Source: a virus (lineage: Duplodnaviria; Heunggongvirae; Uroviricota; Caudoviricetes). Taken from it: a stretch of DNA of 21,415 nt. Positions 1 to 21,415 of this stretch are shown one piece after another. A model generated the notes under the pieces. That model had not been told where the DNA came from, ran no database searches, and was given only the letters and a program-made list of their open reading frames with translations. A program made the position numbers and the translations under genes. Each line of letters starts with the position of its first letter. The stretch's first letter is position 1. The stretch lies in the IMG/VR virus record IMGVR_UViG_2617270975_000009, positions 1 through 21,415 of that record, one strand, 5' to 3'.

Positions 1-425
1 CGGTCCGACCCCGTACTGCTCACGCAGCTTATCCAGCAGTGGCATCATTTTTTCCAGAGGCGGTCGAACTCCGCCTTCGCAAAATAAGCGGAAGCCTGGC
101 GAAGGATATCGTTACTGCGGCGCAGTTCACGATTTTCACGCTCCAGCTCTTTCAGACGCTGACGTTCAGCGGTGGTGAGCCCTCCATCACCGCCCCCGGT
201 ATCCCGCTCATGCTGGCGAACCCAGACACGCAGAGTCTCCGGCGTACAGCCAATCTTTGGAGCAATGGAACAAATTGTCGCCCATTGTGAGTCATATTCG
301 CCCTGACTTTCCAGAACCATACGGGCTGCCCGTTGACGGACTTCAGGGGAAAAACGAGTATTTTTAGTCATCCTGTTTACCTCTTTCTCAGGAAGTTTAG
401 TCTCCAGGATTCCCGGGGCGGTTCA
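1..425 (-). mobile_element. IS629 (IS3 family) copy, partial at window edge: inverted-repeat end, complete orfA and first ~16 codons of orfB
   Basis: Positions 1-391 are identical to 21025-21415. The reverse complement of 391-425 reads TGAACCGCCCCGGGAATCCTGGAGACTAAACTTCC, which I recognise as the IS629 terminal inverted repeat. The encoded OrfA is recognised as IS629/IS1203 OrfA. Confidence 0.85.
45..371 (-). CDS. IS3-family transposase OrfA (IS629 orfA, helix-turn-helix/leucine-zipper part)
   Basis: 108 aa ORF ([57 protein letters not shown]...) recognised as IS629 OrfA; identical to the copy at 21069-21395. Confidence 0.9.
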
Positions 426-481
426 TAAATATAGTTTTTAGAGTCCATAAAAAACCTGTCAAAACCTGACACACAGAACGA

Positions 482-514
482 CGCCACCAGCTACTGAGCG
501 GTGGCATTTTTTTG
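482..514 (+). terminator. Putative rho-independent terminator
   Basis: GC-rich stem GCCACC(483-488)/GGTGGC(500-505) with an inner GC pair, followed by ATTTTTTTG (506-514). Confidence 0.5.
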
Positions 515-607
515 TGCTATTTGTTTCATATTCTGCAATTACGATGATGAATATTGCGATTTGTGAAACTATAATAACTGTTGTTTTATACAGTTATAAG
601 GGGCGTT

Positions 608-769
608 ATGGCTATTTCAGTAAAGCCGGTATTGATAAGTGAGAAGCAAATGGAAGCGATAAAGAAAATTCAGGAAGAGCAGCGTAAAAAATCAGGAATT
701 GGAGTAGCGCCAACTCTGCATGAAATTGCACGAGGGTTAATAGATAAGGCGCTGGCAGGCTGTATGTGA
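608..769 (+). CDS. Small ribbon-helix-helix-like (Arc/CopG-type) putative DNA-binding protein
   Basis: ATG at 608 with AAGGGG 6 nt upstream. The 53 aa product (MAISVKPVLISEKQMEAIKKIQEEQRKKSGIGVAPTLHEIARGLIDKALAGCM) has a beta-strand/helix/short-loop/helix pattern typical of RHH repressors. The ORF-table start at 581 is a TTG. Confidence 0.5.
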   Translation: MAISVKPVLISEKQMEAIKKIQEEQRKKSGIGVAPTLHEIARGLIDKALAGCM

Positions 770-785
770 AAATGGATGGCATCGC

Positions 786-1247
786 ATGGAACTAAAATTT
801 ATTGATAACCCTGTGCGATTACAGGCCTTTCTTAACGAGCCAGGCAATACCGAAAATATTGTTGAGCCGGGGCACACGTACTACATCAAGCCTGATGCGG
901 TATATCTCGGCATCTACGAAGGATTAGTGCTGGCTGGCGTTCATGAAGTGCGTAACTTCTGGCATAGCGTTGTTGAATGCCATGCGGTGTACGACCCCGG
1001 ATTCCGTGGTGAATATGCACTGCAAGGGCATCGATTATTCTGCAAATGGCTTCTCGAAAACTCACCATTCCTTAACAGCATCACTATGGTTCCTGACACC
1101 ACGAAATATGGACGGGCAATTATCCGTTTGCTTGGCGCTACCCGTGTTGGTCACCTTGATGATGCTTATATCAGATGTGGTAAACCCGTCGGCGTAACGC
1201 TTTATCAGTTAACTCGGCAACAATATAAGGAATTCAGCGAATGTTAA
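786..1247 (+). CDS. Phage virion protein, P22 gp14-like by position (first gene of the ejection-protein operon)
   Basis: 153 aa ORF whose stop overlaps the next gene's start. Size and position immediately upstream of the gp7/gp20/gp16-like genes match the P22 gene 14 slot; the sequence itself is not independently recognised. Confidence 0.6.
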   Translation: MELKFIDNPVRLQAFLNEPGNTENIVEPGHTYYIKPDAVYLGIYEGLVLAGVHEVRNFWHSVVECHAVYDPGFRGEYALQGHRLFCKWLLENSPFLNSITMVPDTTKYGRAIIRLLGATRVGHLDDAYIRCGKPVGVTLYQLTRQQYKEFSEC

Positions 1248-19735: not shown

Positions 19736-19757
19736 GCTTCTTCATGTGCGTAGAAAA

Positions 19758-19873
19758 GGTGTTGGTTCAGTTGGTTCAGTTGGTTCAATTTGTAAAGGGT
19801 ATTGTTTTATAAGGATTTTATTCTTTTTATTGAACCAACACTGAACCAACAACACGGTATTTTGAACCAACAC
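19758..19873 (+). repeat. Iteron cluster, putative replication origin of the satellite-like element
   Basis: Three tandem GTTGGTTCA repeats (19761-19787), an AT-rich spacer, then three spaced inverted TGAACCAAC repeats (19831, 19842, 19863), immediately downstream of the primase-helicase gene. Inverted, diverged homolog of 7548-7670. Confidence 0.7.
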
Positions 19874-20181
19874 AATGTGACTGAATTGATGCGCACAACA
19901 CCTGGCTGGCATCAGAGAGTGTTTTACGAGACTTTCGTAAAATCCTGTGTACAAGGGCGTGACGTTTTTGAAAGTGAGCACTACGAAATTTTCGTAGTTC
20001 AAAAAACAGCCTCTGAGAAGTTGTTATGCCTGTTCAGCAAACCATCCGCATAGCTGATCGCGAATCAAATTACCAATGGAGCCAGAAGCAAGGGCAGAAC
20101 TGAAAAGCGCCTGCCGTGAAGAGTAATGCGACACCATAATGAACCGCCCCGGGTTTCCTGGAGAGTGTTTTATCTGTGAAC

Positions 20182-21072
20182 TCAGGCTGCCAGATCATCG
20201 TTTCCGATGGAAGCATAATAAGCTTTTTCTGCTTCTGCCGGAGGAGTATGGCCCAGCCTTTCCAGCAATCGTCGATTGTTATACCAGTCCACCCACGTGA
20301 GTGTGGCCAGTTCCACTTCTGCACGGTTTTTCCAGCTCTTACGGTGTATTACCTCCGCTTTGTAAAGACCATTGATGCTCTCCGCCATCGCGTTGTCATA
20401 CGAGTCGCCTGTACTTCCTGTTGATGCCAGTAATCCGGCTTCCTTAAGCCGCTGTGTGTAGGCCAGCGATACATACTGAGAACCTTTATCACTGTGATGG
20501 ACCGTGCCGGACGGTCGACGGGCCCATAACGCCTGCTCCAGTGCATCCAGCACGAATGTCGTCTCCATGGACGATGAGACCCGCCACCCCACAATGTATC
20601 CGGCAAACACATCAATGATGAACGCCACATAGACGAAGCCCTGCCATGTGCTGACGTAAGTAAAATCAGCTACCCACAGCTGGTCAGGTCGTTCTGCCAC
20701 GAACTGACGGTTTACGCGGTCGCCTGCGGCAACGGCTTTCCGGCTGATGGTCGTACGGACCTTTTTACCCCGGAGAACACCGGCAAGTCCCATAACTGCC
20801 ATGAGACGTGCCACAGTGCATCTGGCCACTCTGATACCTTCCCGTAACAACTGACGCCAGACTTTACGCACACCGTATACCTGGTGATTTTCATCGTATA
20901 CGCGCTGTATCTCTTTCTTCAGCCAGTCATCGTGCTGCGCACGGGCACTGCGTTTATCCGGATGATGTCGCTGTTGCTGACAATGGTAATACGTTGACGG
21001 GGCAATATGCAGTTCGCTGCATAGCGGTCCGACCCCGTACTGCTCACGCAGCTTATCCAGCAGTGGCATCAT
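20182..21072 (-). CDS. IS3-family transposase OrfB (IS629, DDE catalytic domain)
   Basis: 296 aa ([33 protein letters not shown]...) recognised as IS629 OrfB. Confidence 0.9.
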
Positions 21073-21395
21073 TTTTTCCAGAGGCGGTCGAACTCCGCCT
21101 TCGCAAAATAAGCGGAAGCCTGGCGAAGGATATCGTTACTGCGGCGCAGTTCACGATTTTCACGCTCCAGCTCTTTCAGACGCTGACGTTCAGCGGTGGT
21201 GAGCCCTCCATCACCGCCCCCGGTATCCCGCTCATGCTGGCGAACCCAGACACGCAGAGTCTCCGGCGTACAGCCAATCTTTGGAGCAATGGAACAAATT
21301 GTCGCCCATTGTGAGTCATATTCGCCCTGACTTTCCAGAACCATACGGGCTGCCCGTTGACGGACTTCAGGGGAAAAACGAGTATTTTTAGTCAT
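21069..21395 (-). CDS. IS3-family transposase OrfA (IS629)
   Basis: 108 aa, identical to the ORF at 45-371. Confidence 0.9.
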
Positions 21396-21415
21396 CCTGT
21401 TTACCTCTTTCTCAG

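Follow-up and report, generated by a model that had tools for sequence, protein, structure and literature searches.

The DNA analysed here is a stretch of 21,415 nucleotides (IMG/VR virus record IMGVR_UViG_2617270975_000009; "the window" below means this stretch at its full length), which is the entire contig JNQZ01000062.1 of assembly GCA_000704425.1, the draft genome of Escherichia coli 2-427-07_S4_C1. We found no mention of this strain name in the literature. We conclude, with a probability of roughly 0.7, that the window is the excised, attP-bearing circular form of a phage-inducible chromosomal island (PICI) like EcCIMP1, into which one intact copy of the insertion sequence (IS) IS629 has been placed to give a unit of 21,024 bp. 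The window contains a single IS629 insertion, is circularly permuted relative to chromosomal copies of the island and carries the attP joint, and attP and attR occur in the same assembly; its sequence assigns the island to the EcCIMP1 family. Physically, the molecule was most likely a free excised circle. The attP molecules would be free circles or replication concatemers, which may stem from spontaneous, helper-phage-triggered excision in part of the culture.

The terminal redundancy lies within one IS629

Positions 1-391 of the window are identical to positions 21025-21415, exactly as a first-pass annotation of the sequence had noted, and a repeat search returned no length of terminal identity other than 391. 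When the sequence is read across the window ends (20140-21024 followed by 1-425), it forms a complete element of 1,310 bp whose terminal inverted repeats are imperfect (TGAACCGCCCCGGG...; arms 401-426 and 20139-20164, 92% complementary). The features that make up this element and its borders are the following.

1-391: terminal redundancy, copy 1, inside IS629 (IS positions 886-1276 counted from the 20140 end); contig 50 of the assembly starts at the same base
21025-21415: terminal redundancy, copy 2, exactly identical to 1-391
20140-21415, minus strand: first 1,276 bp of IS629, which continues at window 392-425
20182-21072, minus strand: orfB, open, IS3 transposase
21069-21395, minus strand: second copy of orfA
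1-425, minus strand: last 425 bp of IS629, with orfA at 45-371 (minus strand) and the terminal inverted repeat at 401-425
20137-20139: TAA target-site duplication, left copy; empty sites have a single TAA
426-428: TAA target-site duplication, right copy

The element had been named as IS629 of the IS3 family, and this identification holds. The rebuilt copy aligned over 1310/1310 bp (positions 1-1310) in a single block, at 99.5% identity, to a feature annotated by its depositors as "insertion sequence: IS3 family IS629" (LC567824.1, and likewise in other Stx-phage records), and these reference features carry IS629 OrfA/OrfB annotation. IS629 belongs to the IS3 family and has the isoforms IS1203 and IS3411. 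Both orfA (108 aa) and orfB (296 aa) are open reading frames (ORFs), and the ORFs of the element match the NCBIfam IS3 transposase model (316 bits), with rve domains listed. The ALIL frameshift pseudoknot (Rfam RF01497, 120 bits) is complete at 20998-21114 on the minus strand, and a second match at window 1-90 is truncated by the contig start. As the first-pass annotation had also reported, TAA lies directly outside both IS ends (20137-20139 and 426-428), and IS629 makes target-site duplications of 3-4 bp (PMC3271280). The element thus agrees with IS629 in its length of ~1,310 bp, its inverted repeats, its identity, its orfA/orfB arrangement with a frameshift signal and its 3-bp duplication, and structurally it shows no difference from the reference.

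The insertion site is non-coding: it lies 404 nt beyond the end of the primase gene, and a small ORF that heads a block of DUF2824, gp7, gp20 and gp16 genes begins 182 nt past the IS. No ORF is interrupted. The transposase is antisense to the island genes. Because a promoter scan found no sigma-70-like promoter in the IS-free intergenic region, we make no claim on polarity of the insertion. Contig 59 of the same assembly carries window 20140-21415 followed by 392-9698 without interruption (10,583 bp), and so it spans the end-to-start join of the window independently. The 391-bp terminal redundancy is an assembly overlap that arose from both contig ends entering the same IS. Because this overlap lies in a multi-copy repeat, the argument for a circle rests on the attP junction and on the empty sites.

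Empty sites in chromosomal relatives identify a single insertion

The IS-free site predicted from the window is a 79-mer composed of 20101-20139 and 429-468, with a single TAA. We examined chromosomal relatives at 21 loci (L001-L021), including that of E. coli strain 6409, and the exact 79-mer was found in 21/21 of them, while neither IS junction was present in any. The sister contig LRLO01000147.1 from another strain (assembly GCA_001911245.1) is 99.98% identical to the window, has no IS and shows the inner flanks joined. In NZ_CP148430.1, a closed circular relative of 12,152 bp, window 20139 runs straight into 424-756, again with no IS. A match between 3-base flanks alone would occur by chance in about 1 in 64 cases; because the IS-free 79-mer with one TAA is exact in all 21 loci, the TAA pair is a genuine target-site duplication. 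We conclude that IS629 was inserted once, with duplication of TAA. The earlier proposal of a single IS3-family insertion in a circular unit of ~21,024 bp is supported by the empty sites, by attP and by the passage of contig 59 across the join.

A search of 5,426 complete E. coli genomes for the IS junction returned two near matches only, which represent a different IS629 insertion ~380 bp away with an adjacent deletion. In strain Z1323HEC0422 (NZ_CP148339.1; locus L025, 4579-5888), a related island carries IS629 (99.5% identity) ~380 bp further downstream and in the same orientation, and the DNA beside it lacks DUF2824, gp7, gp20 and the N-terminal part of gp16. This copy is an independent hit in the same island region with an adjacent deletion.

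The window carries the joined ends of a tRNA-targeting island

The DNA between the IS ends amounts to 19.7 kb and is a circular permutation of an island of 19,711 bp. Chromosomal copies run from window 9688 to 20139 and then from 426 to 9714, with one TAA at the join. The 27-bp sequence at window 9688-9714 is present at both ends of these permuted copies, in degenerate form at attR, and we therefore identify it as the attP core. On the left, these copies join the 3' end of the tRNA-Thr(CGT) gene thrW, downstream of proBA, with attL overlapping the last 17 nt of the tRNA; on the right, they adjoin yagP and paoDCBA.

9605-9838, plus strand: attP region; core 9688-9714 = TCCTATTATCGGCACCATTCAAACATC, the first 17 nt of which copy the 3' end of thrW

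The published EcCIMP1 core, TCCTATTATC, sits in this attP at 9688-9697, and the joint in the window is exactly as predicted in silico from the element ends. The window shows both island ends joined, which a single integrated copy cannot yield, since attP needs an excised or tandem form. The exact core shared by attL and attR is only 11 bp (TCCTATTATCG). Direct repeats flank the core on the attP arms, at 9605-9626 and 9817-9838 (ATGGGGGTACTTTTGGGGGTAT) and at 9722-9742 and 9785-9805 (GTCTACTAAAGTCTTTCAAAA), and are plausible candidates for arm-type integrase binding sites.

The 5,426 complete E. coli genomes contained no exact attP, only tandem-island joints of ~92% identity, none of them on plasmids. 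An attP 52-mer and an IS-junction 40-mer were both absent from the viral contig collection, and an attP 40-mer and the IS junction were absent from metagenome contigs. These searches were negative, so neither the insertion nor the circle had a second, independent representative in the viral and metagenome collections. In strain 6409 (NZ_CP010371.1; locus L001, 1-6027), the island lies behind another prophage, with tail fibre genes and a pseudo-integrase, and the site it occupies is a partial copy of the tRNA 3' half, not the intact thrW; ARAGORN finds no tRNA there. This layout indicates serial occupation of the same att site.

attP and attR forms occur in the same assembly

Contigs 50 and 59 of the assembly are both 100% identical to the window over 1-9698. 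Contig 50 starts at the first base of the window, inside the IS, and runs through the right half of the island to a degenerate attR (TCCTATTATCG|CACCATTTAAATC) and on into yagP/paoDC; it is the integrated form of the island. Contig 59 (JNQZ01000059.1) leads from pO55/pO103-type IncFIB plasmid DNA, with genes for ParA, Phd/ParE, RepB and an integrase, through a complete IS629 into the right half of the island, and it ends at window 9698, the last base common to attP and attR. Because the contigs break at the attP/attR branch point, the reads supported both attP and attR. Where contig 59 joins plasmid to island (locus L026, 7159-8548), IS629 has AAG next to one end and TAA next to the other, with no duplication. 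The first-pass annotation had turned to the DNA beyond the IS in the source genome to distinguish one copy from two. Plasmid DNA does lie beyond the IS on contig 59, the only outer flank found, possibly as an assembler path through the repeat, and no second outer flank was seen; the inner flanks stem from one insertion. In pO55 (locus L032, 10370-11679), IS629 occupies exactly the plasmid position that it has in contig 59, in the opposite orientation, with AAG on one side and apparently CT(T) on the other, as judged from a 2-base alignment extension. IS629 seems to sit at this pO55 site without a direct duplication.

IS629 transposed once into the non-coding gap between a putative origin and a terminator-like hairpin that precedes the ejection-gene block, duplicating TAA. 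If the window derives from a free excised circle, the island would have stayed excision-competent, and its integrase would have recombined attL with attR into the 21,024-bp circle, with the joint at 9688-9714. The sequenced culture would then have been a mixture of integrated and excised copies, and the assembler would have run both contig ends into the IS to leave the 391-bp overlap. Several points weigh against this reading. The same assembly contains the path from plasmid through IS629 to island without a matching duplication (AAG versus TAA), possibly an IS629 cointegrate. Of the contigs in the assembly, a single one contains the left half of the island, and none with attL was seen. The topology was read from assembled contigs, and both window ends lie inside a multi-copy repeat, which makes their overlap weak proof of a circle. 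Finally, no other collection searched contained the attP junction.

Two alternatives keep the single insertion and give the attP joint another setting. One is a tandem array, in which thrW would carry at least two IS629-bearing islands in head-to-tail order, the attP-like joint would mark where one copy meets the next, and the collapsed repeat unit would look circular. Contig 50 shows integration with a normal attR in at least part of the population, and islands are often stacked at the att site, as in strain 6409, where the island follows another prophage, and in MP1, the host of EcCIMP1, where the island lies beside a remnant island with an arm ~92% identical to the attP right arm. However, the assembly yielded no contig that leads from attL into the left half, the AntA allele occurs in one contig only, the exact attP of this island was found in 0/5,426 complete E. 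coli genomes, and EcCIMP1 is known to give free circles (PMC11773190). We therefore regard a tandem array as unlikely, even though we place it ahead of the other alternatives. Next in rank, and also unlikely, is an IS629-mediated cointegrate between the IS-bearing island circle and an IS629 on a pO55/pO103-type IncFIB plasmid, with the order plasmid, IS629, permuted island, IS629, plasmid. Such a molecule would account for the run of contig 59 from plasmid genes through a complete IS629 into the right half, and AAG/TAA flanks without a duplication are expected of a recombinant IS; pO55 has an IS629 at exactly that plasmid position. However, IS629 is a collapsed multi-copy repeat, so the exit that the assembler took from it is unreliable, and the common 9.7 kb is 100% identical with ends that fall at contig ends, a pattern that points to a single unitig used three times. 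Moreover, the reciprocal junction (left half, IS, plasmid) was not seen in the assembly, and the pO55 copy is opposite in orientation relative to the plasmid flank.

The remaining explanations fare worse. An assembly chimera of attL and attR, with the island present in its integrated form only, might be entertained for an assembly that reuses sequence across several contigs; yet the 11 bp of exact sharing (TCCTATTATCG) is far below any assembler k-mer or overlap length, and the joint is precisely as predicted from the Sanger-sequenced EcCIMP1 circle, so we consider a chimera very improbable. The alternative raised by the first-pass annotation was that two independent IS629 copies in the same orientation bracket a linear chromosomal segment of 19.7 kb, with the TAA match a coincidence. 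A contig with repeats at both ends taken from two loci makes this a formal possibility, but every chromosome examined has the inner flanks side by side with one TAA, the chromosomal segment is permuted with attL and attR at window ~9.7 kb, and the window contains attP, which is impossible for a single integrated copy. We reject this alternative and give it next to no weight. A two-copy structure derived from the circle, either an IS629 cointegrate or a tandem array, is a minority possibility. Whether the molecule is a free circle, a tandem array or a cointegrate, IS629 was inserted only once, and the attP joint needs the island integrase, through excision or through a second copy integrating beside the first.

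Three other identities were considered and ruled out. A phage genome with true direct terminal repeats does not fit a repeat that lies inside an IS at an arbitrary position. The window has no plasmid replicon and does have an att site and an integrase, which excludes a plasmid. An IS3-family transposition circle would contain the IS only.

The island belongs with EcCIMP1

EcCIMP1 is a PICI of 19,963 bp in E. coli MP1 (Pick, Stadel & Raivio, ISME J 2025; GenBank OR778291, CP139039; PMC11773190). It occupies a tRNA-Thr site between proA and yagU, with core TCCTATTATC and Sanger-defined ends, and in its authors' classification it is an atypical 'Type C' PICI (PMC11773190). Its excision, circularisation and transduction occur only upon induction of the P22-like helper phage Kapi1, and its mobilisation requires its own integrase and the canonical alpA (PMC11773190). 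We aligned the window island, with the IS removed and the sequence opened at att, to the MP1 chromosome. The alignment consisted of three blocks at 98.4-99.4% identity that cover ~74% of the length and start and end at the Sanger-defined ends.

The two islands have in common the integration site, the core and the end positions, as well as a gene order of int, AlpA, AntA, DUF4222, Ash, small ORFs and TOPRIM/DUF927 primase, followed by DUF2824 with P22-type DNA-transfer genes, a reversed second AlpA, PerC and pRiA4b-ORF3. They differ in size (19,711 bp versus 19,963 bp) and in IS629, which EcCIMP1 lacks. Unlike EcCIMP1, the window island has a DUF6387 gene between int and alpA (~11031-12311), and in the gp20/gp16 region (~2079-5887, comprising most of gp20 with its C-terminal part, gp16 and the next ORF) its sequence is unrelated to that of EcCIMP1. 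The gp16-like protein has 701 aa in the window, whereas MP1 encodes a lytic-transglycosylase protein of 906 aa, and Ash is intact in the window island but truncated in MP1. These swapped cassettes suggest an exchange of ejection proteins, perhaps one that matches different P22-like helpers. On the basis of site, core, gene order and sequence, we assign the window island to the EcCIMP1 family, and by analogy with EcCIMP1 its mobilisation would probably need a helper phage.

Classical Gram-negative PICIs (EcCICFT073, EcCIEDL933) and P4-like satellites likewise have a tRNA-adjacent integrase, AlpA, a primase-type replication protein and helper-dependent excision (comparison in PMC11773190). In contrast to these elements, the window island showed no recognisable capsid-size, terminase-redirecting (Rpp) or Psu/Sid/Delta genes, and it has a P22-type gp14/gp7/gp20/gp16 block instead. 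Among records deposited as circular plasmids, NZ_CP148430.1 (12,152 bp, E. coli), CP031370.2 and CP031371.2 (Klebsiella) resemble the window in having AntA, DUF4222, an Icd-like gene, primase, PerC and an integrase, and their primase is 99.1% identical to that of the window over 3.2 kb. They differ from it in their integrase and att (no thrW core) and have neither the ejection-gene block nor IS629. PLSDB lists circular 'non-mobilizable plasmids' of 12-22 kb from E. coli and Klebsiella that carry an integrase, AntA, DUF4222, primase and PerC with no plasmid replicon typing. These small circles look like excised satellite islands deposited as plasmids. Another PLSDB record, NZ_CP134663.1, is 4.9 Mb long with an island copy at 66% coverage and is presumably a chromosome mislabelled as a plasmid.

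Gene content of the island

The island genes fall into an integrase next to attP, a regulatory and replication module, a module past the IS and a distal accessory region.

9870-11084, plus strand: tyrosine integrase (Pfam Arm-DNA-bind_3, Phage_int_M, Phage_integrase), the first gene after attL in chromosomal copies
11145-19735, plus strand: regulatory and replication module, gene order as in EcCIMP1
11145-11212, plus strand: int-alpA RNA
11227-12108, plus strand: DUF6387
12306-12503, plus strand: AlpA, followed by a 143-aa ORF
12947-13780, plus strand: AntA, followed by DUF4222
13949-15016, plus strand: Ash, with isrK (14330-14407) and C4 RNA (14470-14557) inside, followed by six small ORFs
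16979-19735, plus strand: TOPRIM/DUF927 primase, GTG start
19761-19871: iteron-like 9-mers, GTTGGTTCA three times and then TGAACCAAC three times, just past the primase gene; the IS lies 268 nt further
486-5444, plus strand: module past the IS, assigned by Pfam, PHROGs and PF26808
~490-505, plus strand: terminator-like hairpin, from a terminator scan on the IS-free sister contig
608-769, plus strand: 53-aa ORF
786-1247, plus strand: DUF2824/gp14-like head-morphogenesis protein (phrog_651)
1241-1918, plus strand: P22-type ejection protein, gp7-like
1918-3339, plus strand: P22-type ejection protein, gp20-like
3339-5444, plus strand: P22-type ejection protein, gp16-like, 701 aa
5463-9486: distal accessory region, laid out as in EcCIMP1, including the reversed alpA_1; begins with a 139-aa ORF (minus strand)
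6847-7032, minus strand: second AlpA-type helix-turn-helix protein, on the strand opposite to the main genes
7550-7670: second iteron-like cluster
7707-7988: PerC
8592-9134: pRiA4b-ORF3
9127-9486, minus strand: 119-aa ORF that ends beside attP

By its position, the cluster at 19761-19871 is a candidate replication origin. Both this cluster and the one at 7550-7670 consist of three copies of GTTGGTTCA followed by three of its complement TGAACCAAC, and parts of the two form a 65-nt inverted repeat (92%) 12 kb apart; the former follows closely on the primase gene, and the latter closely precedes PerC. The distal accessory region also contains three copies of a 28-nt motif that ends in GACAAGTACGCGCGCG (5995-6022, 6282-6309 and 8025-8052). 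Rfam places isrK and the C4 antisense RNA within the Ash gene region, and relatives annotate an Icd-like cell-division inhibitor just downstream. This region resembles a P1/P7-type immI (C4-icd-ant) module within a satellite island.

In the larger ORFs, scans with Pfam and PHROGs revealed no capsid, terminase, tail or lysis genes, the DUF2824 protein and the ejection proteins being the only phage-particle functions; some but not all of the small ORFs were included. PADLOC returned no defence-system match for ten accessory ORFs. For the GTG-start primase and for the ORF that spans the junction, we found no exact protein records.

Implications

These results describe ordinary mobile-element biology, as IS629, its target-site duplication, tRNA-targeting satellite islands and the EcCIMP1 family have all been described before. 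What is new is this member only: an IS629-tagged variant, with different DUF6387 and ejection-protein cassettes, whose attP form is found in a public draft genome. A circular, phage-like contig of 21 kb with a terminal repeat is here neither a phage genome nor a plasmid, and its repeat is not a new one; it is read as an excised satellite island with a common IS. Public-database small "plasmids" appear to include such excised islands as well.

That the attP and attR forms were both caught in a routine draft assembly from 2014 suggests appreciable excision of EcCIMP1-like islands in wild strains, and IS629 beside the putative origin does not appear to prevent excision. The IS also gives the island homology to many IS629 copies on plasmids and prophages of enterohaemorrhagic and enteropathogenic E. 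coli. If contig 59 is real, which we consider unlikely, the IS629 of the island would have served as portable homology that fuses the excised island with an IS629-bearing, pO55/pO103-type IncFIB virulence plasmid. This island-plasmid fusion through IS629 is the sole reading that would raise the interest of the finding: it would link a phage-mobilised satellite to a plasmid, so that the island could travel on the plasmid, or plasmid DNA in helper-phage particles.

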